A stretch of DNA of 64,000 nt from Escherichia coli (GCF_003334355.1 NZ_QOWP01000022.1); one strand, 5' to 3'; shown: positions 31,581 to 51,784, numbered from the stretch's first letter. Notes: generated by a model not told the origin, from the letters alone. A program made the numbers and translations.

Positions 31581-33005
31581 TTACTGCATTAACAGGTAGA
31601 TGGTGCTGTCGCCGCGCTGAATGTTGAGTGCCAGCACAGACGGTTTGCTGTCGAGAACTTTACGCAGTTCAGCGATGTTTTTCACTGCCTGCTGGTTCGC
31701 GCCAATAATCACATCACCTTTCTTCAGGCCGATCTGCGCAGCCGGAGTGCCCGTTTTCACGTTGTTCACTACCACGCCCTGATCTTTGCCTTTGTTGCTC
31801 ATCTCAGCGCCTTCAATGCCGTTGAAGATGGAGCTGGAATCAACCTGATTCTGGCTGCTCTGCTGCAGTTCCAGGTTCACGTTAACCTGCTTACCGTCGC
31901 GCAGTAAGCCCAGGGTCAGTTTGCTGCCTACCGGCATAGTACCCACCTGAGCACGCAGTGCGGCAAAGCTGCTGATCGGCTTACCGTTCAGTGAGGTGAT
32001 CACATCACCCGCTTTAATGCCCGCTTTTGCAGCGGAGGAATTAGGCAGAACCTGGCTTACGAAAGCACCGCGCTGGGCGTCAACTTTCATCGCTTTCGCC
32101 AGTTCGGAGTTCAGCTCAGTCCCCATAATACCCAGCTCACCGCGTTTCACCTGGCCGTATTCCACCATCTGCGAGGTCAGGTTTTTCACCATGTTACTCG
32201 GGATAGCAAAACCGATACCGATGTTGCCGCCGTCCGGTGCGAGGATCGCGGTGTTGATACCGATCAGTTCGCCGTTCAGGTTAACCAGCGCACCACCGGA
32301 GTTACCACGGTTGATCGCTGCATCGGTCTGGATGAAGTTTTCGTAGTTTTCGGCATTCAGGCCGCTACGCCCCAGCGCAGAGACAATCCCGGAAGTTACC
32401 GTCTCGCCCAGACCAAACGGGTTACCAATCGCTACGGTGTAATCACCCACGCGCAGTGCATCAGAATCCGCCATCTTAATTGCGGTCAGGTTTTTCGGGT
32501 TCTGGATTTGGATCAGCGCGATATCAGAGCGCGGATCTTTGCCAACCATCTTCGCGTCGAACTTACGGCCATCGCTCAGTTGAACTTTAATGACCGTCGC
32601 GTTATCAACAACGTGGTTGTTGGTGACGACATAGCCTTTATCGGCATCAATGATGACGCCGGAACCCAGCGCCATGAATTTCTGTTGCTGGCCGCCACCA
32701 TTACCGCCCTGGCCACCCTGGCAGAACGGAGAGCTCTGGAACGGAGAACCTTCCTGGCAGAACGGAGAATCATCACCGAAGAACTGCTGGAAATTACGCG
32801 GCATACGCGGCGTATTAACGGTTGTGCTACCTTCTACGTTAATGCTGACCACTGAAGGCATCACCTTTTCGAGCATCGGTGCAAGGCTTGGCATCTGCTG
32901 GGCTGTCGTTGCTGAAGAAGTCTCAGCCGCCGTTGCAGAGAGCGGAGATAACGCCAAACCTAAACTCAGAGCCAGTGCACTCAGTGCTAATGTGGTTTTT
33001 TTCAT
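31581..33005 (-). CDS. degP: periplasmic serine endoprotease/chaperone DegP (HtrA)
   Basis: 474 aa ORF with signal peptide, trypsin-like domain (GNSGG) and two PDZ regions. Confidence 0.97.
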   Translation of the reverse strand: MKKTTLALSALALSLGLALSPLSATAAETSSATTAQQMPSLAPMLEKVMPSVVSINVEGSTTVNTPRMPRNFQQFFGDDSPFCQEGSPFQSSPFCQGGQGGNGGGQQQKFMALGSGVIIDADKGYVVTNNHVVDNATVIKVQLSDGRKFDAKMVGKDPRSDIALIQIQNPKNLTAIKMADSDALRVGDYTVAIGNPFGLGETVTSGIVSALGRSGLNAENYENFIQTDAAINRGNSGGALVNLNGELIGINTAILAPDGGNIGIGFAIPSNMVKNLTSQMVEYGQVKRGELGIMGTELNSELAKAMKVDAQRGAFVSQVLPNSSAAKAGIKAGDVITSLNGKPISSFAALRAQVGTMPVGSKLTLGLLRDGKQVNVNLELQQSSQNQVDSSSIFNGIEGAEMSNKGKDQGVVVNNVKTGTPAAQIGLKKGDVIIGANQQAVKNIAELRKVLDSKPSVLALNIQRGDSTIYLLMQ

Positions 33006-33050
33006 GTATTTCAGTCTCGATTAACAGATAACGCAAAATTGCTGTGTTCT

Positions 33051-37279: not shown

Positions 37280-37360
37280 ATTTTGCTCCAAACGACATCG
37301 GCAATTGGGCAAATTCTAACCCAATAATAATCGCCATTATCTAATACCCTGGTATTTCGT

Positions 37361-38800
<1,440 letters not shown>

Positions 38801-39006
38801 TCATACAAATAAGATGACGGCATTTTACTCGCACGTTCCATGAAAATCCTTTGCAAAGCGTAATGTTTCAAATGCACAAAACTTTTATACTCTAAGAAAT
38901 CAGGATTGCACCAGTACAAGCAGCCTGATGTTTGACGAGTATTTAACTTGTTATGAATAACATAGAATAGCAGCCATTCACTTTTTCTACGAATCAGGAA
39001 CCCTCC

Positions 39007-40287
39007 ATGAGTAAGTCTGAAAATCTTTACAGCGCAGCGCGCGAGCTGATCCCTGGCGGTGTGAACTCCCCTGTTCGCGCCTTTACTGGCGTGGGCGGCA
39101 CTCCACTGTTTATCGAAAAAGCGGACGGCGCTTATCTGTACGATGTTGATGGCAAAGCCTATATCGATTATGTCGGTTCCTGGGGGCCGATGGTGCTGGG
39201 CCATAACCATCCGGCAATCCGCAATGCCGTGATTGAAGCCGCCGAGCGTGGTTTAAGCTTTGGTGCACCAACCGAAATGGAAGTGAAAATGGCGCAACTG
39301 GTGACCGAACTGGTCCCGACCATGGATATGGTGCGCATGGTGAACTCCGGCACTGAAGCGACCATGAGCGCCATCCGCCTGGCCCGTGGTTTTACCGGTC
39401 GCGACAAAATTATTAAATTTGAAGGGTGTTACCATGGTCACGCTGACTGCCTGCTGGTGAAAGCCGGTTCTGGCGCACTCACGTTAGGCCAGCCAAACTC
39501 GCCGGGCGTTCCGGCAGATTTCGCCAAACATACCTTAACCTGTACTTATAATGATCTGGCTTCTGTACGCGCCGCATTTGAGCAATACCCGCAAGAGATT
39601 GCCTGTATTATCGTCGAGCCGGTGGCAGGCAATATGAACTGTGTTCCGCCGCTGCCAGAGTTCCTGCCAGGTCTGCGCGCGCTGTGCGACGAATTTGGCG
39701 CGTTGCTGATCATCGATGAAGTGATGACCGGTTTCCGCGTAGCGCTAGCTGGCGCACAGGATTATTACGGCGTAGTGCCAGATTTAACCTGCCTCGGCAA
39801 AATCATCGGCGGTGGAATGCCGGTAGGCGCATTCGGTGGTCGTCGTGATGTAATGGATGCGCTGGCCCCGACGGGTCCGGTCTATCAGGCGGGTACGCTT
39901 TCCGGTAACCCGATTGCGATGGCAGCGGGTTTCGCCTGTCTGAATGAAGTCGCGCAGCCGGGCGTTCACGAAACGCTGGATGAGCTGACAACACGTCTGG
40001 CAGAAGGTCTGCTGGAAGCGGCAGAAGAAGCCGGAATTCCGCTGGTCGTTAACCACGTTGGCGGCATGTTCGGTATTTTCTTTACCGACGCCGAGTCCGT
40101 GACGTGCTATCAGGATGTGATGGCCTGTGACGTGGAACGCTTTAAGCGTTTCTTCCATATGATGCTGGACGAAGGTGTTTACCTGGCACCGTCAGCGTTT
40201 GAAGCGGGCTTTATGTCCGTGGCGCACAGCATGGAAGATATCAATAACACCATCGATGCTGCACGTCGGGTGTTTGCGAAGTTGTGA
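39007..40287 (+). CDS. hemL: glutamate-1-semialdehyde 2,1-aminomutase
   Basis: 426 aa ORF recognised as HemL. Confidence 0.97.
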
Positions 40288-40296
40288 TCCAGCATG

Positions 40297-40425
<129 letters not shown>

Positions 40426-40444
40426 GGGCCGTTATATGGAAAAA

Positions 40445-42427
40445 TTAACGGCTCTGCTTTCTCAGCAAATAGATAAAATATGGCGCGCCGATAAAGGTCG
40501 ACAGCAGCCCCGCCGGGATCTGGAACGGAAACAGCACCATCCGCCCACACCAGTCAGCGAACACCAGCAGTAAACCACCCACCAGCGCCGAAATTACGAT
40601 GTGTGGCATCGTCCGTCGAAAACCCATCATCCGCGCAATATGCGGTGCCATTAAACCAACAAAACTCAACGGTCCAATAGTCATCGTCGCGGTCGCCGTC
40701 AGGCAAGCCGCTAACAGCAGCAGCGCAATTCGCGTCGGCGTCAGCGCCATTCCTACGGCTCGGGCGGTATCACCACCCAGCGGTAAAATGGTCAGCCAGC
40801 GGCGGCACAGCGGGGTAATCGCCAGCAAAATCACCATCACAATTCCGGTGCGCCAGACCTGCGCATCGGTCGCGTTGTAGGTCGAACCGGAAATCCAGGT
40901 CAGCACTTGCGCCATTCGCGGGTCACCACTTGCCTGCAACATCATCAAAAGCATGGTGAACGCGGTGCTTAACGCCATCCCCGCCAGTAACATACGGTGT
41001 GGGGAAAATCCACCGCGGCCGGCGGCGATCATAATGATCAACAGCGTCACCGCCGCGCCGAGACTGCCTGCAGGTAACAGCCAGCCAAAGGCATTACCCG
41101 GCACCAGAAACAGCATCAACACCACGCCAAACGCCGCGCCGGAGCTAATCCCCAGCACTTCCGGGCTTGCCATCGGGTTTCCGGTCAGTCGCTGAATAAT
41201 ACAGCCCGCCACCGCCAGCATGACGCCCGCAAACAGCGCCGCCATAATTCGCGGCCAGCGCCAGGGCATTAAATCCTCGAGCAACGCCCCGCTCGCCCAC
41301 GTCCAGCCGTGCGCATCACGACCAAACGACAGCGCCACCACCACAACCATCAACAGCAGCACGCCGCCCGCGAGGGCAAACGCCAGCACATGTTGGCGTT
41401 CAGCCGCGACACGATCGTTGACCTTCATATCCGGCGCGCTAATGCTGCGTAAACGCGGCAACAGCCACAGTAGCAGCGGCGCACCGATCAACGCAGTGAC
41501 CGAACCGGTGGAAACTTCCATCCACACGCGAGTCAGCCAGAGGATGATTTGATCAGAAAGCCACAGAATTAACGCACCAATCAGCGACGCCAGCATCAAC
41601 CGTGGCAACAAACGCCGCGCCCCCAGCATTTTTGCCAGCAGTGGCGCGAACAACCCGATAAAGCCGATAATCCCCACTGCGTTCACCAGCAGCGCACTGA
41701 TGACTATCGCCAGCGACAGCGCCGCCAGACGCGCGAGCGACAAGGCCAGCCCGAGATTGCGCGCCACGCCATCATCAAGCCCCATCAGGGTTAACGGACG
41801 AAGTAGCAGTAACGTCAGCATCACGCCGCCCAGCAACTGCGGCCATAAACGCTCAACGCCGCCCCAGTCGGTTTGCGTCAGCGTTCCGGTGCTCCACAGG
41901 AACATGCTTTGCAACTGGTCATGATGGAAGATAACCAGTAACTGATTGATTGCCCCACAATAAAGGCTCACTACCAGCCCCGCGAGAATCAGCGTTACCG
42001 GCGACAGCCGTTTCCCCCACGCGACGCCAAAGACAATTAAGCCAACAACGCAAGCCCCTGCCAGCGCAGCAAACTGGCTCGCCATAGCACCTGGGATCGC
42101 CCAGAGCGTAGTGACGGTAATCCCCAGTTGCGCGCCTGTTGCAACGCCCAACGTCGTCGGTTCCGCCAGAGGATTACGCAGCACTTGCTGAAACAGCACG
42201 CCCACCAGCCCCAGGCCCGCGCCCACCAGCAGCGAAATCGCCAGACGCGGCAACAAGCTGTAGTGAAAAATCATCTGCTCGATGACGTCAATATCCGGCG
42301 ACCAGGCAGCCTGCGCCCACTGGCTACGCGGCAGCGCCTGCGAGAAGTTCATCCAGGTCAGCGCCGTAGCGGCAATCACCAGCAACGCCAGCAATAACGC
42401 CGGAAAAAGCGCAATTCGTTTACTCAC
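40445..42427 (-). CDS. fhuB: ferrichrome ABC transporter permease
   Basis: 660 aa duplicated-permease ORF recognised as FhuB. Confidence 0.95.
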   Translation of the reverse strand: MSKRIALFPALLLALLVIAATALTWMNFSQALPRSQWAQAAWSPDIDVIEQMIFHYSLLPRLAISLLVGAGLGLVGVLFQQVLRNPLAEPTTLGVATGAQLGITVTTLWAIPGAMASQFAALAGACVVGLIVFGVAWGKRLSPVTLILAGLVVSLYCGAINQLLVIFHHDQLQSMFLWSTGTLTQTDWGGVERLWPQLLGGVMLTLLLLRPLTLMGLDDGVARNLGLALSLARLAALSLAIVISALLVNAVGIIGFIGLFAPLLAKMLGARRLLPRLMLASLIGALILWLSDQIILWLTRVWMEVSTGSVTALIGAPLLLWLLPRLRSISAPDMKVNDRVAAERQHVLAFALAGGVLLLMVVVVALSFGRDAHGWTWASGALLEDLMPWRWPRIMAALFAGVMLAVAGCIIQRLTGNPMASPEVLGISSGAAFGVVLMLFLVPGNAFGWLLPAGSLGAAVTLLIIMIAAGRGGFSPHRMLLAGMALSTAFTMLLMMLQASGDPRMAQVLTWISGSTYNATDAQVWRTGIVMVILLAITPLCRRWLTILPLGGDTARAVGMALTPTRIALLLLAACLTATATMTIGPLSFVGLMAPHIARMMGFRRTMPHIVISALVGGLLLVFADWCGRMVLFPFQIPAGLLSTFIGAPYFIYLLRKQSR

Positions 42428-43314
42428 GCTTTACCTCCGATGGCGTTATCCAGAACGCGCACAAAGTGCATTGCCGAGAGCGTCGCACCATAAAACCAGA
42501 CTGCGGGTACGCGCTGAAAGCGTCCGGCGCGGACAAACGGCATGGCCTGCCACAGCGGGGTTGCCATTAGCGCGTCCATGTCTTTGCTGTTGTCGTGATC
42601 AAAACAGAGCACATCAACATCTTTATACGCCGCCAGACGATCGATGCTGACGGCGGTACTGCCCCAGAAGTTGGTTTCCCCTTGCCAGGCATTTGGGATG
42701 CCGTACTCATCAAGAATTTCCTGAAACAAGCTGTTTGGACCGAAAACCAGCATATGGCGCGGATCGATAAGCGTCGTCAGCAATAACGGGCGTTCACCAC
42801 GCTTCACAAAGCGGGGTTTCATGCTGCGGATAAAGTCTTCATAGTGCGCTAAATGCGTTTCTGCTGCGCTTTGCAGGTTAAGTAAATCTGCCATTTCCGT
42901 CAGTGACTTACGCGCCATCGCCAGCGGCTGTTTGCCATCGCTGAAGTTAAATCCACGCCCCGGCGCAATACGAACCAGCATTTCTGGTGAAGGGCCATAT
43001 CCTGCCGACCAGACCATAAACGATGGTTTCATTTCGGTCAGCAGTTCAAGGTTAGGTTCTGTGCGCAAACCGACGTCGATCACTGAGTCCGGCAATGGTG
43101 GTTCGCTGACCCACAGGCGATAGTTGATGGTATCCGCCACGCCGTAAGGCACGATGCCGAGCGCCAGCAGTAATTCCACCGGCAACCACTCCAGCGCCAC
43201 AATACGATTGGGATCAATAGCCGCCGCGTGGGCGGTATTCATCTGCCATAACAACGGGGAAAGCGCCATCGCCGTTAACAGTCGACGGCGCGAAATAAGA
43301 GGTAAGCCGCTCAT
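42424..43314 (-). CDS. fhuD: ferrichrome periplasmic binding protein
   Basis: ORF recognised as FhuD; start at second Met (296 aa); the adjacent upstream ATG at 43315-43317 is an alternative. Confidence 0.93.
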   Translation of the reverse strand: MSGLPLISRRRLLTAMALSPLLWQMNTAHAAAIDPNRIVALEWLPVELLLALGIVPYGVADTINYRLWVSEPPLPDSVIDVGLRTEPNLELLTEMKPSFMVWSAGYGPSPEMLVRIAPGRGFNFSDGKQPLAMARKSLTEMADLLNLQSAAETHLAHYEDFIRSMKPRFVKRGERPLLLTTLIDPRHMLVFGPNSLFQEILDEYGIPNAWQGETNFWGSTAVSIDRLAAYKDVDVLCFDHDNSKDMDALMATPLWQAMPFVRAGRFQRVPAVWFYGATLSAMHFVRVLDNAIGGKA

Positions 43315-44111
43315 CAATAAACAAAACTCACAGGTGCAGCACCCGCCGGATGCGGCAAAATACCCATCGGGATGCCATAAATCATTTCGAGGGTTTCGCC
43401 GCGCATAATTTCCGCAGGCGTTCCCTGAGCAATCATTTCACCGCCGCGCAGGGCGACCAGATAATCACAGTAGCGTGCCGCCATATTGATATCGTGCAAC
43501 ACGGCAATGACCGTCAGGCCACGCTCCTGACTTAAACGGTGCACCAGCGACAGCACATCAACCTGGTGGGCGATATCCAGCGCCGAGGTCGGTTCGTCGA
43601 GCAACAGACAACGGCTATCCTGCGCCACCAGCATGGCGATCCACGCCCGCTGACGTTCGCCGCCAGAGAGACTATCGACCAGCCGATGCGCCAGCGGTTT
43701 TAAGCCAACCAGCGAGATAGCTTCCTCGACTTTTTCGCGATCTGCCGCCCCAAAGCGCCCCAGCGCGCCATGCCACGGGTAACGACCAATCGCCACCAGT
43801 TCACGCACGGTCATCCCTTCTGCCGGAGGAAGCTGCTGCGGCAAATAAGCCACTTTGCGGGCAAACGCTTTGCTGCTCCAGCTTTCCAGCGGTTGGGCAT
43901 CAAGAAGAATCTCCCCTTCCGACGGCGGCTGATGACGGCCAAGCATTTTGAGCAGAGTGGATTTACCAGAACCGTTGTGACCAATCAGACCGGTCACTTT
44001 CCCGGCAGGAAAGGTTAACGACAGCGGATGCAAAAGCGTGCGCCCGGGCACACGAAAGGAGATATTACGCAGTGCAAAAGTGGTATCGGAATGATTCGTG
44101 TATTCCTGCAT
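43314..44111 (-). CDS. fhuC: ferrichrome ABC transporter ATP-binding protein
   Basis: Walker A GHNGSGKST and LSGGERQR signature; start trimmed to MQEYTNHSD (265 aa). Confidence 0.93.
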   Translation of the reverse strand: MQEYTNHSDTTFALRNISFRVPGRTLLHPLSLTFPAGKVTGLIGHNGSGKSTLLKMLGRHQPPSEGEILLDAQPLESWSSKAFARKVAYLPQQLPPAEGMTVRELVAIGRYPWHGALGRFGAADREKVEEAISLVGLKPLAHRLVDSLSGGERQRAWIAMLVAQDSRCLLLDEPTSALDIAHQVDVLSLVHRLSQERGLTVIAVLHDINMAARYCDYLVALRGGEMIAQGTPAEIMRGETLEMIYGIPMGILPHPAGAAPVSFVY

Positions 44112-44161
44112 AACAGCCAACTTGTGAAATGGGCACGGAAATCCGTGCCCCAAAAGAGAAA

Positions 44162-46405
44162 TTAGAAACGGAAGGTTGCGGTTGCAACGACCTGACGTTC
44201 TGCGCCCCAGAAGCAGCCATAAGTGTTAAAGCAGCTGGCGACGTATTCACGATCGAACAGGTTGTTAACATGCAGCGCCACGTTGGAGCCAGCCATGCCG
44301 ACTCGCGCCAGATCATAACGTACTAACGCATCCACGACCGTATAACTTCCCACTTTAAAGGAGTTAGCCGGATCACCATAACTGGAGCCAGTATAACGAC
44401 CACCGGTGCCCAGCGTCAGACCTGAAAGCGGACCGTCAAAGAAGGTGTAGTCAGCCCACAACGAAGCCATGTGTTTTGGCACCTGTGCAGGCGTATTGCC
44501 TTTATAGGTAGTATCGGTGGTGTATTCCGCATCGGTGTAAGTATAAGAACCGACTACGTTAACACTCGCCGACAGCGCCGCTTTCGCTTCGATTTCTACG
44601 CCACGAGCGCGGATCTCGCCACCTTCAACCGAGAAGAAGGAACCCTCAGGGTCCGCCATCAGGTTGTTTGTTTTAGTGAGATTATACACGGCACCAGTAA
44701 CTACAATCGGACGATCTTCCGGTACATATTTCACGCCGACTTCATACTGCTTACCTTTAGACGGTGCGAAAATATTACCATCCTTCCCAACTTGCGAAGA
44801 AGGTTCAAACGATTCGCTATAGCTGAAGTAAGGTGTTACACCATTATCAAACAGGTAGTTAACACCACCACGCCAGGTAAACTGTTTGTCATCACGTTTA
44901 TCGGTCGTCCCGGCAACGCGGTTAAGAGATTCTTGATCTGCCCAGTCATAACGACCGCCCAGGGTGACCAGCACTTTATCCCACTGCGCCTGATCCTGAA
45001 CATAAACGCCCGTTTGTTTCTGCTTATTCAGAATGCGGTAAGGGCCGGAGTTTGCCGGATCTTTGGCATTGAAGTCGAAATCGGTATTCACCGGATTGTA
45101 CAGATTGAGCAGTGGCACAGAGTCGTCGTAACCAAACCAGGCGTTGATGTCATTACGCATACGCATAAAGTCGACACCGGTCAGCAGGGTGTGGTCGATA
45201 TCGCCAGTGGCAAACTTGCTCTGCAACTGGGTATCAACGGAGAAGTTTTGCAGCTTCTCATCATCAACGACGTATTTACGTGCCAGATAATGGCCTTTAT
45301 CCGCTGGCGCTAATGCCGCACACTGTTTGCTGTAAGCATTCGCCGGATCGGAGCAGACGCCGTAACCATAAACGCTGTTTTGCGAGGTTTTGTTTTCAGC
45401 AAAGCGCAGGTTCTGACGCACAGTAAAGGTGTCGTTAAATTCGTGATCGAAGCTGTAGCCGACCATCTTCTCATTACGAGAATAGGTGTTGTTCTTCGCC
45501 CCTTCATTAAAGTCTGTCGGCAGACGCTTACCGTTCGGCAGCGGCTCAACGGTTCCCTCTTTCGGCAACCAGCCGTAATAACCGGTTTCCGGCTCGTTCT
45601 GGAAGTAAGAAAGGAAGGTGAAATTGGTTTTATCATCCGGACGCCAGGTGAACGCCGGTGCAATAGCATAACGCTGCTCTTCTGACCCTTTCTGCTGGGC
45701 ATTGGCAGAACGCGCAAGACCGGTCAGGCGATAAGAGTAAACGCCGTCATCATCCAGCGCATCGCTAAAGTCAAAACCAGTCTGGAACAGGCTGTCAGTA
45801 CCGGCTTTAAACTGAACTTCTTTGAGCGGTTCGGTGGTCGGACGCTTGCTGACCATATTCAACAGACCGCCAGGACTGCTTTTACCGTAAAGCACGGAAA
45901 CCGGGCCACGCATAATTTCAGCGCGTTCCAGCATATACGGATCAATGACCGCATCGTTATAGAAGTTGCCCTGCAACTTCAGGCCATTCAGATAGTTATT
46001 CTGGCTTTGGCCTTCTGCCGCAAAACCGCGAATGATCAGGTGGTCATAGGTGTTGGATGCGCCACGCGTACCAACAGAGACACCCGGCGTGTAGCTAAGC
46101 GCTTCTTTTACCGACTTCGGCTGATGCAGCGCCATCTCTTCGGCGGTCACAACAGAAATAGACTGTGGCACTTTTTGAATCGGCGTATCGGTTTTAGTGC
46201 CGGTAGCTGACTGTCGCGCCGCAATAGTTGCAGCAGGCCCCCATGCGCTTTCTTGCGGCGCAGGTGCAGCGGTAACGGTGATAGTGTCTTCTTTCGGTTC
46301 AACCGCTGCCTGTGCATAAACAGACATGCCGCTAACCGCTGTGGCTACTACAACTGCGATTTTACGCAGTGAGTGTTTTGGCTGAGCAGTTTTGGAACGC
46401 GCCAT
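44162..46405 (-). CDS. fhuA: TonB-dependent ferrichrome outer membrane receptor (phage T1/T5/phi80 receptor)
   Basis: 747 aa ORF with signal peptide and C-terminal ...ATATFRF; recognised FhuA. Confidence 0.97.
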   Translation of the reverse strand: MARSKTAQPKHSLRKIAVVVATAVSGMSVYAQAAVEPKEDTITVTAAPAPQESAWGPAATIAARQSATGTKTDTPIQKVPQSISVVTAEEMALHQPKSVKEALSYTPGVSVGTRGASNTYDHLIIRGFAAEGQSQNNYLNGLKLQGNFYNDAVIDPYMLERAEIMRGPVSVLYGKSSPGGLLNMVSKRPTTEPLKEVQFKAGTDSLFQTGFDFSDALDDDGVYSYRLTGLARSANAQQKGSEEQRYAIAPAFTWRPDDKTNFTFLSYFQNEPETGYYGWLPKEGTVEPLPNGKRLPTDFNEGAKNNTYSRNEKMVGYSFDHEFNDTFTVRQNLRFAENKTSQNSVYGYGVCSDPANAYSKQCAALAPADKGHYLARKYVVDDEKLQNFSVDTQLQSKFATGDIDHTLLTGVDFMRMRNDINAWFGYDDSVPLLNLYNPVNTDFDFNAKDPANSGPYRILNKQKQTGVYVQDQAQWDKVLVTLGGRYDWADQESLNRVAGTTDKRDDKQFTWRGGVNYLFDNGVTPYFSYSESFEPSSQVGKDGNIFAPSKGKQYEVGVKYVPEDRPIVVTGAVYNLTKTNNLMADPEGSFFSVEGGEIRARGVEIEAKAALSASVNVVGSYTYTDAEYTTDTTYKGNTPAQVPKHMASLWADYTFFDGPLSGLTLGTGGRYTGSSYGDPANSFKVGSYTVVDALVRYDLARVGMAGSNVALHVNNLFDREYVASCFNTYGCFWGAERQVVATATFRF

Positions 46406-46444
46406 TGGTATATCTCTGATGTAAAGTGAATGATAACGTAAACG

Positions 46445-46478
46445 AGAATGATTATTATAAAGATAAGATAATATTCGA
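46445..46478 (-). promoter_or_regulatory. Fur-box-like AT-rich operator overlapping the fhuA promoter
   Basis: gaatgattattataaagataagataatattc contains GATAAT/ATTATC hexamer repeats and a TATAAT -10 on the minus strand. Confidence 0.65.
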
Positions 46479-46584
46479 AACGCTGGCGGGTTCGCAAGCG
46501 GTACGCAATCTGAGCGTTCCTGAAGGGTTAATAAACAACCAGATGAAAAGAAAGGGTTAATACTTTGGGTGGGATGTTATTTTA

Positions 46585-46607
46585 CCGGATGGCAACTCGC
46601 CATCCGG
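46585..46607. repeat. perfect 9-bp-arm hairpin downstream of mrcB
   Basis: ccggatggc-aactc-gccatccgg. Confidence 0.45.
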
Positions 46608-46624
46608 TATTTCACGCTTAGACG

Positions 46625-49159
46625 TTAATTACTACCAAACATATCTTTAATCCAACCGGCTACACCGTCGCTGTCTTTCTGCTCTTGCTGAGCAGGTTGC
46701 TGTTGCGGCTGTTGCTGCGGCTGAGAAGACTGATCAAACGGATTGCTTGACGGCTGCTGCTGCATCTCACTCTGCTGGCACAGCGATTGCGGATCGCTGG
46801 TCCAGACCGGCAAGACACGCATGCCACCGCTGCAAACAAAGTTGCCGTCGTAGTCCACGCCCATATCTGCAATATCTTCTGGCGGAACAAGATTCAGCGG
46901 TGTTGGCGTCTGGTTAGCCAGATAACGCTGATAAATCGACATTGCCCCGCTGGCTCCATACAGTTTGGTCGGCTGGTTGTTATCACGGCCTACCCAGGTG
47001 ATGGTCACCGTGCTGCCGTCAATGCCCGCAAACCAGGTATCTACGTTATTGTTAGTAGTCCCTGTTTTCCCTGCCAGATGCAGGTTCGGGTATTTCGCCC
47101 CAAGCTGACGACCCGTACCGCGTTGTACAACCTGCTGCATGGTCCATAGTGTCAGATACGCCGCCTGCGCCGGAACAGCGCGTTCCGCCTGCGGGAAGCT
47201 CTGATACAGCACTTTGCCATCTTCCGCGATTACCGAACGCAGCGCAGAAAGCGGTGCACGGTTACCACCGCTGGCGATGGTCTGGAATGCCTGCGCCACT
47301 TCGATTGGCGTTAAGTTCAACGCCCCCAGCAGCATCGCCGGAACCGGATGCAGCTGATCTTTCGGCACGCCCAGTTTGATCCAGGTCTCCGTAACCGCAG
47401 GCAGCCCCAGTGCCATCCCCAGATTTACCGTCGGCACGTTCATCGAACGGGTCAACGCATCCACCAGCATCACTCTGCCACTTTCGCTATAACGACGATC
47501 ATCGTTCTGCGGTGACCAGACCTGGCCATTCGGCTGACGCAGCGCGATTGGCGCATCCGCAATCCACGTGTTCAGGCGATAGATTTTCGGCTGGCTTAAG
47601 GCAGTCAGATAAGTCGCTGGTTTTGCAAGGGAACCAATCGAACGACGCGCCTGCATCGCACGATTGTAGCCCGCAAACTGCGGCTCAGAACCTCCGACCA
47701 TCGCACGAACTTCACCACTAAAGCGGTCGACGACCACAATCGCGGTTTCCAGATCGCTCAGCTTACGCTGTTTCTTCAGTGCCGGAATGCCTTCCACGGC
47801 GGCTTTTTCTGCCGCGTCCTGGGCCACCGAGTCAAAGGTAGTGAAGATCTTCACGCCGGACAGATCTTTTACCTTATCGCCTAATTTCGCCTGCAACTCC
47901 TGACGCACCAGTTGCATAAAGGCTGGCTGTGGAGAGATTACCCCACCGCGCGGCTGTACGCCCAGAGGACGCGCGCTGAGCATTTCATACAGTTCACCAT
48001 CGATAATCTGCTGTTGTTGTAGCAAACGCAGCACCAGATTACGTCGCTCCAGCGCCAGTTTCGGGTTACGCCACGGGTTGTAGATGGACGCCCCTTTCAC
48101 CATGCCAACTAACAGCGCCTGCTGGTCAAGGCTCAATTCTTCTACCGGGCGACCAAAGTAGTACAGGCTCGCCAGCGGGAAGCCACGAATTTCGTTGTCG
48201 CCGCTCTGACCGAGATACACCTCATTCATATACAGCTCAAGAATGCGATCTTTGCTGTAACGCGCATCCATGATCAACGCCATATAGGCTTCGTTCGCTT
48301 TACGCCAGTAAGAGCGCTCGCTGGAGAGGAACAGGTTTTTCACCAGCTGTTGCGTCAGCGTACTCGCACCCTGCACCGTGCGACCTGCGGTCAGGTTTGC
48401 CAGCACCGCACGTCCGATGGAGTAGAGGCTGATGCCGTCATGCTCGTAAAAATGACGGTCTTCTGTCGCCAGCAAAGTATCCACCAGCAAATCAGGGAAA
48501 CCACTGCGCGGCACAAACAGACGTTGTTCACCGTTTGGCGAGGAGATCATGGTGATCAGGCGCGGATCAAGACGGAAGAAGCCGAACTGACGGTTGTTCT
48601 CCATATTGACGATGGTCGCCAGATGATCGCCATCAAAGGTCAAACGCGCACGCACCTGCCCTTCTTTGCTGTCCGGGAAATCAAACGGACGGCGGATCAT
48701 CTCAATGCTGTTAGCCTGCACGGTAAATTCGCCAGGACGGGTCATTTTCGACACCTGACGATACTGGGTCGCCTCCAGCAGCTTCACCATCTCGTTCTTG
48801 CTGATGGTCATGTCTGGCTCAAGATTGACCATTCGGCCATAAACTGCCGCAGGCAGTTGCCAGACCTTGCCATCAATACGGCTACGAATTTTTTGATCGA
48901 GATAAACGCCGTAAATGGCGATCAGCACGGCAAAAACGATAGCCAGTTTTAGCAGTAGCCATAGCCAGCCGCGTTTGCCACGAGGCTTACGCCCTTTGCC
49001 TTTGCCCTTACCTTTGCGCGGCATCGGTTCTTCATCCTCATAGTCATCATAATCGTCGTAATCATCGTCATCTTCGTAACGACGACGGCTTACCTTTTGT
49101 TTGACCGGACGCGTCGGTTTCCCTTTGCGTCCAATTGGCTCGCGGTCATTCCCGGCCAT
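46625..49159 (-). CDS. mrcB: penicillin-binding protein 1B (bifunctional glycosyltransferase/transpeptidase)
   Basis: ORF recognised as PBP1b; start trimmed to [14 protein letters not shown] (844 aa). Confidence 0.95.
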
Positions 49160-49256
49160 GCTTTTTCTCCGCAATATTCAGGCGCAAAAGCCCGATTTTC
49201 TGTTCTTCTGTTACAAGACAGAAGAAGATATCTCTCAAAATTTGTGCTCGATCGGT

Positions 49257-49345
49257 CCCCTCTCCCTTGAGGGAGAGGGTTAGGGTGAGGGTGAACGTGC
49301 GCGCTGATGCCCTCACCCCGGCCCTCTCCCACAGGGAGAGGGCGA
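49257..49345. repeat. two GC-rich repeat units in inverted orientation (boxC-like) between mrcB and hrpB
   Basis: ccctctcccttgagggagagggttagggtgaggg and its near-identical inverse ccctcaccccggccctctcccacagggagagggc. Confidence 0.6.
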
Positions 49346-49354
49346 AAACCAACC

Positions 49355-51784
49355 TTACGAATACTTTTTCGTCCGTCGCGTCGGTGCAGTGTTTGCCGGG
49401 TCGTCCGGCCAGACATGTTTGGGATAACGCCCTTTCATCTCTTTTTGCACCTCACGGTACGCTCCTTTCCAGAAGGCGCTCAAATCTCGTGTGATTTGTA
49501 ATGGCCTTTGGGCAGGGGAAAGCAACTCCAGCACCAGCGGCACGCGCCCCTGGGCGATCGTCGGATTGGTGGCCTCACCAAACATCTCCTGCATTCTCAC
49601 CGCCAGCGCGGGCGGGTTATCTTCATGATAACGAATGGCGATCCGGCTTCCCGTCGGCACAGTGTAATGCGCAGGCAATTCACTATCCAGACGTTGCTGC
49701 ATTCCCCAATCAAGTAATCCGCGTAGTGCCTGATAAATGTCGAGTGATTTCAGGCCGCGTAGTGAATGCACGCCGGTCATATGTGGCAGCAGCCACGTTT
49801 CCAGCGTCGCCAACAAACTTTCATTATCAACCGCAGGCCAGTCATATTCCGGCAACCACTTTGCGGCGCATAACAAACGCAAGCGTAGCTGTTCCGCTTC
49901 CGCCGTCCAGTTGAGCACGCTTAAACCTTTATCACGGATGCCATTAAGCATCGCCTGATGCAACTCGTCTTCTGACGGTTTCGCCAACGTCTGCACTTTC
50001 ACCGTCAACTGACCGATTTGCAGCCGACGCCAGGCTTTCAGCGTACCTTGCGCGTCATCCCATTCCACGGTGTCAGATTGCTGCACCAGCTGCGGACAGC
50101 GTCGCACTAATTCATCAATATCGACCGGTAGCGCCAGTAAAATCCGCGCATCCGGCGAGGCGCTGCCCTGCAATAATAACGGTGCGATCAACCATTCGTG
50201 GCGGCTTAGCGCGTCGTCGGCATCGAGCATCGCTCCCATGCCGTTTGCCAGTTGATAGCGTCCATCTTGCCCACGGCGGCGAGCAATGCGATCGGCAAAC
50301 GCCCCGGCAAGTAGCGGCGCGATAAGCGAACTGTCTGCCTCACCGCCGCGTACGTTTAAGCGTTTTAACAGTTGCTGACTACGTTGCTGCCAGGCTGGTT
50401 GATTGCGCGAAAACGCCACGCCCAGGTCACTATTGCCCATCCGTGGCGGCTCTTCGAGAATGGCGGCAATTTTTGCCGCGGTAGCAGCTTCGTCGTCGTT
50501 CTTCGCGCTAACCAGCATTGCCGCTAAACGCGGATCGTTACCCAGCGCTGCCATTTTTTGCCCTTGCGCACTAAGCCGTTCACCGTCCAGCGCCCCCAGC
50601 ATCCGTAACAGGCGTTTCGCGGCCAGTAGATTCACCGTTGGCGGTTGATCCAGCCAGCTCATCTGCGTCGGATCGCTGCATCCCCATTGCAGTAATTCCA
50701 TCAGCAAACCGGAAAGATCGCTTTGTAATATTTCCGGTTCACTTTGCGCCGCGGCGCGTTCTGCTTGTTCCTTGGCGATTAAATGCAGGCAGATACCCGG
50801 CTCCAGACGCCCGGCGCGCCCGGCACGCTGCGTCATGGATGCCTGGCTAACGCGTTGAGTAATCAGCCGCGTAAGCCCCGTGCGCGGATCAAAGCGCGCC
50901 ACACGCTCCTGGGCACAATCCACCACCAGACGAATACCTTCGATGGTTAAACTGGTTTCAGCAATATTGGTCGCCAGCACCACTTTGCGCATCCCTTGCG
51001 GTGCCGGGAGGATCGCTTTTCGCTGATCGTTCAGCGACAACGCGCCATACAGCGGGCAGAGCAACACATCACTGCCGATGCGCGAAGCCAGTTGTTCCTG
51101 CACACGCTGAATTTCTCCGACGCCAGTTAAAAATAACAGTAATGATCCACTTTCCTGACGCAGCATTTCGGCGGTGGCAACCGCGACGGCTTCGTCAAAA
51201 CGCTGATGCGCGGGCAGCGGTAAATAACGGCGTTCAACCGGAAACGAGCGCCCTTCTGAGATGACGACGGGCGCTTCTGGCAGCATTTGCTGCAAGCGGT
51301 CGTTGTCCAGCGTAGCCGACATAATCAGCAGTTTAAGGTCATCACGCAGACCTTGTTGCACATCGAGTAACAGCGCCAACGCCAAATCCGCCTGCAAGCT
51401 GCGCTCATGAAATTCATCAAGGATCACCAGTCCAACACCGCTCAGTTCCGGGTCACGCTGGATCATCCGCGTCAGCACGCCTTCGGTAACTACTTCCAGG
51501 CGGGTATTCGGCCCGACGCAGTTTTGCGCACGCATCCGGTAGCCAACGGTATCGCCTGGCTTTTCGTTAAGCAGCTCCGCCAGCCGTTGCGCGACGTTAC
51601 GCGCCGCCAGACGACGCGGCTCCAGCAGGATAATTTTTCCGTTAATGCCGGGATGCGCCAGCAATTGCAGCGGCAGCCAGGTTGATTTCCCGGCCCCGGT
51701 CGGCGCACTTAATAATACCTGCGGCGCACAATCGAGAGCGGTAAGTAATTCAGGTAAGACGGCAGCAACGGGCAACGATGACAC
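49355..51784 (-). CDS. hrpB: ATP-dependent RNA helicase HrpB (GTG start)
   Basis: DEAH-box helicase motifs (GAGKST, DEFHER); start placed at GTG giving MSSLPVAAVLPELL (809 aa). Confidence 0.9.
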   Translation of the reverse strand: MSSLPVAAVLPELLTALDCAPQVLLSAPTGAGKSTWLPLQLLAHPGINGKIILLEPRRLAARNVAQRLAELLNEKPGDTVGYRMRAQNCVGPNTRLEVVTEGVLTRMIQRDPELSGVGLVILDEFHERSLQADLALALLLDVQQGLRDDLKLLIMSATLDNDRLQQMLPEAPVVISEGRSFPVERRYLPLPAHQRFDEAVAVATAEMLRQESGSLLLFLTGVGEIQRVQEQLASRIGSDVLLCPLYGALSLNDQRKAILPAPQGMRKVVLATNIAETSLTIEGIRLVVDCAQERVARFDPRTGLTRLITQRVSQASMTQRAGRAGRLEPGICLHLIAKEQAERAAAQSEPEILQSDLSGLLMELLQWGCSDPTQMSWLDQPPTVNLLAAKRLLRMLGALDGERLSAQGQKMAALGNDPRLAAMLVSAKNDDEAATAAKIAAILEEPPRMGNSDLGVAFSRNQPAWQQRSQQLLKRLNVRGGEADSSLIAPLLAGAFADRIARRRGQDGRYQLANGMGAMLDADDALSRHEWLIAPLLLQGSASPDARILLALPVDIDELVRRCPQLVQQSDTVEWDDAQGTLKAWRRLQIGQLTVKVQTLAKPSEDELHQAMLNGIRDKGLSVLNWTAEAEQLRLRLLCAAKWLPEYDWPAVDNESLLATLETWLLPHMTGVHSLRGLKSLDIYQALRGLLDWGMQQRLDSELPAHYTVPTGSRIAIRYHEDNPPALAVRMQEMFGEATNPTIAQGRVPLVLELLSPAQRPLQITRDLSAFWKGAYREVQKEMKGRYPKHVWPDDPANTAPTRRTKKYS

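Follow-up and report, generated by a model that had tools for sequence, protein, structure and literature searches.

The fhuACDB operon and its neighbours

We analysed a 64,000-nt stretch of Escherichia coli DNA (GCF_003334355.1, NZ_QOWP01000022.1), called the window below, with positions counted from its first letter. Our subject is the fhuACDB operon, which occupies 40445-46497 on the minus strand, and the operator for the repressor Fur at its promoter. A model that saw the sequence alone (the original prediction) had described an iron-uptake operon with a Fur-box-like operator and tight gene overlaps at 44162-46478. This range takes in fhuA and part of its promoter, but the operon continues as far as 40445, and the range also leaves out the -35 hexamer at 46492-46497. 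The genes are the following.

fhuA, 44162-46405, minus strand: TonB-dependent ferrichrome transporter of 747 codons (NCBIfam NF007465, 1474 bits against a cut-off of 803, residues 1-747)
fhuC, 43314-44111, minus strand: ATP-binding cassette (ABC) transporter ATPase (NCBIfam NF007863, 577 bits against a cut-off of 433)
fhuD, 42424-43314, minus strand: periplasmic binding protein (NCBIfam NF007864, 552 bits against a cut-off of 252)
fhuB, 40445-42427, minus strand: fused permease (NCBIfam NF007865, 1420 bits against a cut-off of 1107)
mrcB, 46625-49159: upstream neighbour of fhuA
hemL, on the strand opposite to the operon: downstream neighbour

All four Fhu proteins exceed the cut-offs of curated NCBIfam equivalog models, and the predicted gene identities are thereby borne out. 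Many E. coli chromosomes carry the 6.3-kb operon stretch with 100% identity; of 5426 complete genomes, 5425 have a match, and the genes there bear fhu names. Rfam finds no family within the fhu region. We are confident that this is the ordinary chromosomal fhuACDB ferrichrome-uptake operon, repressed by Fur and controlled as in K-12, as is already known. It carries little weight as a discovery, since fhuACDB and its control by Fur are textbook matter and this copy is essentially that of K-12.

A phased Fur operator over the fhuA start point

The promoter and operator comprise the following features.

-35 hexamer TTGCGA, 46492-46497, minus strand: from the promoter consensus scan; -36 to -31 from the mapped start
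-10 hexamer TATTAT, 46468-46473, minus strand: -12 to -7 from the K-12 start; from the promoter scan and cross-genus conservation
fhuA transcription start, 46461, minus strand: transferred from K-12 position 167428; 56-nt leader
Fur site 1, 46438-46456: 13.1 bits
Fur site 2, 46444-46462: 14.2 bits
Fur site 3, 46450-46468: 9.7 bits
TATAAT, 46454-46459, minus strand: at +3 to +8, within the Fur operator

The plus strand at 46445-46478 reads AGAATGATTATTATAAAGATAAGATAATATTCGA, and A+T makes up 82% of it. An exact GATAAT occurs once, at 46467-46472, and five hexamers depart from GATAAT/ATTATC by no more than one mismatch. When a 34-nt frame was slid along the whole window, at least five such hexamers per frame were found at 46426-46483 only, so that the tract, predicted to be rich in these motifs, is indeed the sole 34-nt location in 64 kb with five of them. 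Against the 19-bp Fur consensus, the best match by counting was 14/19, at 46444-46462. Match counts, whether against GATAATGATAATCATTATC or against the 7-1-7 motif, were discarded as a way of calling the operator, the fhuA site being tied with five other places in the window. Because match counting could not decide, a matrix was built from 14 other K-12 Fur promoters (fepA-fes, fepD-entS, fepB-entC, cirA, fecA, fecI, fhuE, fiu, exbB, tonB, sufA, bfd, fhuF-yjjZ, and mntH), with fhuA excluded. This symmetric 19-bp matrix, seeded with the consensus, converged in two rounds on GATAATGATAATCATTATC, and the sites of its 14 training promoters score 8.5-20.0 bits when each is left out in turn.

Three overlapping 19-bp sites in exact 6-bp steps make up a 31-bp cluster at 46438-46468 with a summed score of 37.0 bits. 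Two of them, at 14.2 and 13.1 bits, fall inside the range of the proven Fur sites. The cluster sum is the highest in the window, where the next independent locus reaches 27.1 bits, and it was reached in none of 200 dinucleotide shuffles. Relative to the start at 46461, the operator spans -7 to +24. One consensus match does not suffice to call a Fur box in 64 kb; it is the phased cluster, above background where the single 19-mer is not, that carries the signal.

The cluster reproduces the fhuA entry of Chen et al. 2007, a three-site, 31-bp cluster centred on K-12 position 167439 (window 46450) and confirmed by gel shift; the fhuA oligonucleotide shifted by Fur in that work is identical in sequence to the window (PMC2189734). 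Peaks of Fur in chromatin immunoprecipitation with exonuclease trimming (ChIP-exo) lie at the fhuA promoter in both MG1655 and W3110, and deletion of fur raises fhuA by log2 1.09-5.0 in eight of nine strains (PMC10164565 supplements). Fur likewise represses lacZ when it is fused to the fhuA promoter, more so without oxygen (PMC4676285). The Fur operator at this promoter is therefore upheld by the matrix, by its conservation across genera, and by published binding and derepression in K-12 on an identical sequence; the phased Fur match stands above background, and the published data speak against iron-independent expression.

Four points weigh against this reading. The single 14.2-bit site is not exceptional, as 0.49 such sites are expected per dinucleotide-shuffled 64-kb window; with a lone site at chance level, the case rests on the phased cluster, its position, its conservation, and the literature. 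In the Fur pan-regulon, fhuA is classed as accessory and not core, because one of the nine strains showed no change (PMC10164565). The K-12 ChIP-exo summit falls at 46423-46433, which is 5-15 nt past the downstream edge of the matrix cluster, so the Fur footprint may reach beyond the matrix sites. Finally, the start, Fur binding, derepression, and 3' ends were all measured in K-12 and not in the strain of the window.

Together these features give a well-supported account of how the promoter works. RNA polymerase with sigma-70 starts at 46461 from TTGCGA, the 18-nt spacer, and TATTAT. With sufficient iron, Fe2+-Fur dimers occupy the three overlapping sites at 46438-46468, covering the edge of the -10 hexamer, the start point, and the early leader and so blocking initiation; when iron is scarce, Fur leaves and fhuA is transcribed. 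We infer that repression most likely acts by occlusion, through a block of open-complex formation or of promoter escape at the start point.

Conservation of the promoter region and an invariant leader block

To follow the promoter across species, we scanned species-representative genomes with a degenerate pattern covering codons 1-9 of fhuA. Of the 75 loci recovered, 55 have a FhuA-like N-terminus; they represent about 15 genera, among them Escherichia, Salmonella, Citrobacter, Klebsiella, Raoultella, Kluyvera, Enterobacter, Kosakonia, Phytobacter, Trabulsiella, Yokenella, and Superficieibacter. A Fur cluster scoring 28.0-42.5 bits lies between -25 and -63 relative to the ATG in each of the 55. 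Among 5422 E. coli genomes, 4206 show an identity of 99% or more over the 120 nt that precede the ATG. Mean column conservation in an alignment of 56 sequences was as follows.

Far upstream: 0.67
-35 area: 0.80
Fur cluster: 0.92
46427-46441: 0.998

The last of these intervals falls in a second conserved element.

Invariant leader block TCGTTTACGTTATCATTCAC, 46425-46443, minus strand: +19 to +37; contains the HypT-footprinted sequence of Salmonella

This block is invariant in the 55 loci and lies mostly outside the Fur matrix cluster. The HypT footprint in Salmonella is TTACGTTATCATTCA (PMC6397515), and the K-12 Fur ChIP-exo peak (167456-167466; PMC10164565) coincides with the block. A literature search for control of the fhuA leader by small RNAs (sRNAs) returned a single report, in which loss of Hfq left fhuA transcript levels unchanged.

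Further upstream, the minus-strand sequence AACCCTTTCTTTTCA at 46544-46558 matches the distal HypT footprint of Salmonella, AACCCTTCCTTTTCA, at 14 of 15 positions. Four of the five spacer substitutions relative to K-12 (46563-46569) lie just upstream of it. The spacer also holds, from 17 nt past the mrcB stop, a perfect 10-bp hairpin on the minus strand (46584-46608), ACCGGATGGC-GAGTT-GCCATCCGGT; the sequence that follows on that strand is A-rich, not T-rich.

Transcript ends, internal starts, and gene junctions

Downstream of the promoter, three features bear on how much of the message reaches fhuC, fhuD, and fhuB.

Hairpin GGGCACGG-ATTT-CCGTGCCC, 44131-44150, minus strand: in the 50-nt fhuA-fhuC gap, 12 nt past the fhuA stop
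Internal start in fhuA, 44765 (K-12 169124), minus strand: extended -10 TGgTAATAT; found in three independent K-12 datasets
Second internal start in fhuA, 44674 (K-12 169215), minus strand

The fhuA-fhuC hairpin has a folding energy of -22.1 kcal/mol (z = -3.56). All eight pairs are kept across 20 distinct enterobacterial spacers, three of them with compensatory changes. In single-molecule real-time (SMRT) Cappable-seq data for K-12 (transcription termination site table headed M9), the fhuA start is the 5' end of 506 reads; among those that reach the end of fhuA, 86 stop at 169763, a further 225 stop no more than 50 nt beyond it, and 15 continue downstream (PMC6131387). The 3' end at 169763 corresponds to window 44126, five bases past the stem. 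These counts fit the lower level of fhuC, fhuD, and fhuB RNA, which is 4- to 10-fold below that of fhuA (PMC10164565). In the K-12 long-read data the hairpin thus behaves as a strong but leaky terminator, and with so strong a stop and so few read-throughs the "operon" is mostly a fhuA monocistron plus read-through. The sequence after the stem sits poorly with this: several genera have TTTT or TTTTT there, but in E. coli the hairpin is followed by ATTTCAC and not by a clean U-tract, so the ends seen here could instead arise by RNA processing or stabilisation. The hairpin was missing from the output of the consensus scan.

Beyond the hairpin, the gene junctions are tight. The fhuC stop and fhuD ATG share one base (TGATG, 43314), and the fhuD stop and the GTG start of fhuB share four (GTGA, 42424-42427), with GGAGG 6 nt before the fhuB start. 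Overlaps of a few nucleotides had been predicted at both junctions, and they recur in every genus checked: the 1-nt fhuC/fhuD overlap (TGATG or TAATG) in 22 of 22 loci, and the 4-nt fhuD/fhuB overlap ([A/G]TGA) together with a GGAGG-like motif in 14 of 14. Stop/start overlaps are common in bacterial operons. Translational coupling from fhuC through fhuD to fhuB is a reasonable reading of this conserved geometry. In the account favoured here, most transcripts end at the conserved GC-rich hairpin and a minority read through into fhuC, fhuD, and fhuB, where the 1-nt and 4-nt overlaps would let ribosomes pass from gene to gene.

The internal start at 169124 has a Cappable-seq score of 27.8, against 31.4 at the fhuA promoter (PMC4782308), and the window is identical to K-12 in sequence there. 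Its extended -10, TGgTAATAT, is encoded by the FhuA loop-7 codons D-G-N-I. As a conserved design feature this start was rejected, the motif being present in just two of 40 species representatives. The matrix finds no Fur-like site near 44765, where scores are at most 3.3 bits, and none above 3.3 bits under the intragenic W3110 ChIP-exo peak at 44846-44858. An approximately 700-nt 3' fragment of fhuA mRNA has been described as a cleavage product (PMC5389530); its size is that expected of a primary transcript running from 169124 to 169763 (639 nt; window 44126-44765).

These observations raise a different reading, which we consider unlikely: in K-12-type fhuA, fhuCDB would be partly uncoupled from the Fur promoter and, separately, the leader block at 46425-46443 would serve a control beyond Fur, by HypT or at the RNA level. 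The proposed uncoupling builds on the approximately 95% of fhuA transcripts that stop at the hairpin and on the loop-7 promoter (start 44765), which in iron-replete cells is about as active as the fhuA promoter and whose motif is missing from most other alleles and genera. If it were true, phage-driven variation of the FhuA loops would alter the supply of FhuCDB as a side effect.

Alternative readings of the promoter

The original prediction took TATAAT, which overlaps the AT-rich tract, for the -10 of fhuA. The hexamer is present (minus strand, 46459-46454), but the mapped start at 46461 uses TATTAT instead. Were TATAAT the working -10, transcription would start near 46447 and Fur would repress by sitting on the -10. 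TATAAT is a perfect consensus hexamer, and a TATAAT-type fhuA promoter is drawn in PMC6397515, whose numbering gives a +1 at window 46447; that promoter, however, derives from the computational prediction of Huerta and Collado-Vides 2003. Cappable-seq in K-12 gives a strong start at 167428 (score 31.4) and minor ones at 167477 and 167494, with none at 167442 (PMC4782308), so that its list contains no K-12 start 7 nt downstream of TATAAT. SMRT-Cappable-seq places the fhuA start at 167427, zero-based (PMC6131387). Position 167428 corresponds to window 46461, and its 58-nt surroundings are identical in the two sequences.

The sequence around the two hexamers speaks for the upstream promoter as well. 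Our consensus promoter scan reported TTGCGA, an 18-nt spacer, and TATTAT, and did not report TATAAT; read by eye, the hexamers 16-18 nt upstream of TATAAT match TTGACA at merely one or two of six positions. The first T of TATAAT is a C in many genera, whereas the -35 core CTTGC is invariant in the 55 enterobacterial loci and the -10 is kept as TAT[T/C]AT. In Klebsiella pneumoniae, Kim et al. 2012 mapped the fhuA start to the base that follows ...TATTATATCGCCCG, which leaves a leader of 55 nt (PMC3415461); this start belongs to the upstream promoter and uses the hexamer aligned with TATTAT. We therefore regard TATAAT as the working -10 as very improbable. It is a decoy for annotators, and the mapped promoter is TTGCGA-18-TATTAT, with Fur sites over the start and early leader; TATAAT could act as a minor second promoter.

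A second alternative, in which the tract has no specific Fur operator and is AT-rich simply because it lies near a promoter (as an UP-like element or a nucleoid-protein site, for example), has next to no probability. In its favour, the best single 19-mer is at chance level, and single Fur-matrix hits of 11-14.5 bits also occur in the AT-rich yad fimbrial region. Against it, no other locus in the window and none of the shuffles has the phased triple, this triple keeps its position in 55 loci from different genera, and gel-shift, ChIP-exo, and fur-deletion data exist for the identical sequence.

FhuA as a receptor and its alleles

FhuA is the receptor for phages T1, T5, and phi80, for colicin M, and for others, in agreement with the receptor role named in the original prediction. 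When FhuA of the window was compared with reference alleles, with attention to the surface loops, one amino-acid change from K-12 was found: S216A in the precursor, S183A in the mature protein (window 45760). Residues 34-747 match the solved chain 8a60_A with one difference, at mature residue 183; mature numbering was verified on Y244, W246, and L247. The ligand residues agree with those of the solved K-12 protein, Y244 and W246 being present, and the mature N-terminus is AVEPKEDTIT, with the start of the TonB box. Counting strands back from loop 3 (anchors L3, Y244, and W246) would place residue 183 in the first periplasmic turn. As the sole change would lie in a periplasmic turn, all FhuA surface loops should be of the K-12 type. 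Alanine occupies this position in the window and in 38 of 40 enterobacterial FhuA proteins, and the serine of K-12 is the exception. The T5 Llp paper does not mention residue 183.

The prediction that allelic variation here would matter for phage sensitivity holds in part: fhuA is strongly polymorphic across E. coli, but the window allele is of the K-12 type and shows no receptor variation. Genomes fall as follows by the identity of their fhuA to the window allele.

At least 99%: 3123 genomes
95-99%: 574 genomes
90-95%: 26 genomes
80-90%: 1066 genomes
60-80%: 636 genomes

Known indels in FhuA lie at the loop apexes (bioRxiv 10.1101/320069). With a K-12-type surface, this strain is predicted to be sensitive to colicin M, microcin J25, albomycin, and the phages that depend on FhuA, barring protection by its capsule, its O-antigen, or some other defence. 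An insertion of the IS4-like ISVsa5 splits fhuA in at least one complete genome of E. coli, NZ_CP174268.1, and would remove the receptor.

Comparison with known systems

The window and K-12 MG1655 fhuACDB (b0150-b0153) agree in gene order, in the mrcB and hemL neighbours, and in the lengths of the genes; they also have the same sequences at the junctions, the same hairpin between fhuA and fhuC, and the same promoter-operator region throughout. Identity is complete over the 157 nt immediately preceding the fhuA ATG and in FhuC, at the DNA and protein levels alike. The two differ by 13 silent or near-silent nucleotide changes in fhuA and by S183A in mature FhuA, by three amino-acid changes each in FhuD and FhuB, and by five substitutions 100-160 nt upstream of the start. 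Over 38800-49400 the window diverges from K-12 in a mosaic: 43390-44389 (fhuC and the end of fhuA) is free of differences, fhuD and fhuB, the latter in its first half, carry 8-12 per 250 nt, and the density in mrcB rises to as many as 27 per 250 nt, at 47890-48139. Such a mosaic is the usual signature of recombination in E. coli.

Among siderophore-uptake genes, we compared the fhuA operator with those of fepA-fes, fepD-entS, fepB-entC, cirA, fiu, fhuE, fhuF, fecA, exbB, and tonB. They have in common the GATAATGATAATCATTATC-type 19-bp motif, overlapping sites phased by 6 bp, and a position at the core promoter (Chen 2007). The fhuA sites are of middling strength, with 14.2 bits against 17-20 for fepD-entS, fhuF, and cirA, and unlike those of the other operators they lie mostly downstream of the -10, at -7 to +24.

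The fhuA promoter of K. pneumoniae MGH78578 (start 194287; PMC3415461) resembles that of the window in its -35 (TTGCCT there), its TATTAT -10, and its leader length, and the operator and leader block are near-identical. FhuA there is approximately 61% identical to K-12 FhuA (PMC3415461 ortholog table), and the hairpin stem has compensatory G-C for A-U changes. A published fhuA promoter of V. cholerae differs in sequence and was left out of the comparison.

Other Fur-matrix hits and RNA families in the window

Away from fhuA, a 13.2-bit Fur-matrix site, AATAATAATCGCCATTATC, lies at 37323-37341 in the clcA-erpA spacer. ChIP-exo in W3110 has a Fur peak assigned to clcA/erpA near this site (K-12 177012-177024), and erpA expression changes in fur deletions (PMC10164565). 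The AT-rich yad fimbrial operon (htrE, yadV, yadL, yadM, and yadN) contains several hits of 11-14.5 bits, at 57629-57659, 58473-58509, 59139-59175, and 61112-61148; these hits probably reflect base composition rather than true operators. Rfam matches above the gathering score occur on the minus strand at 23095-23204, 24043-24129, and 33000-33045, the families being CssrA sRNA, t44 RNA, and the HtrA 5' untranslated region thermometer.

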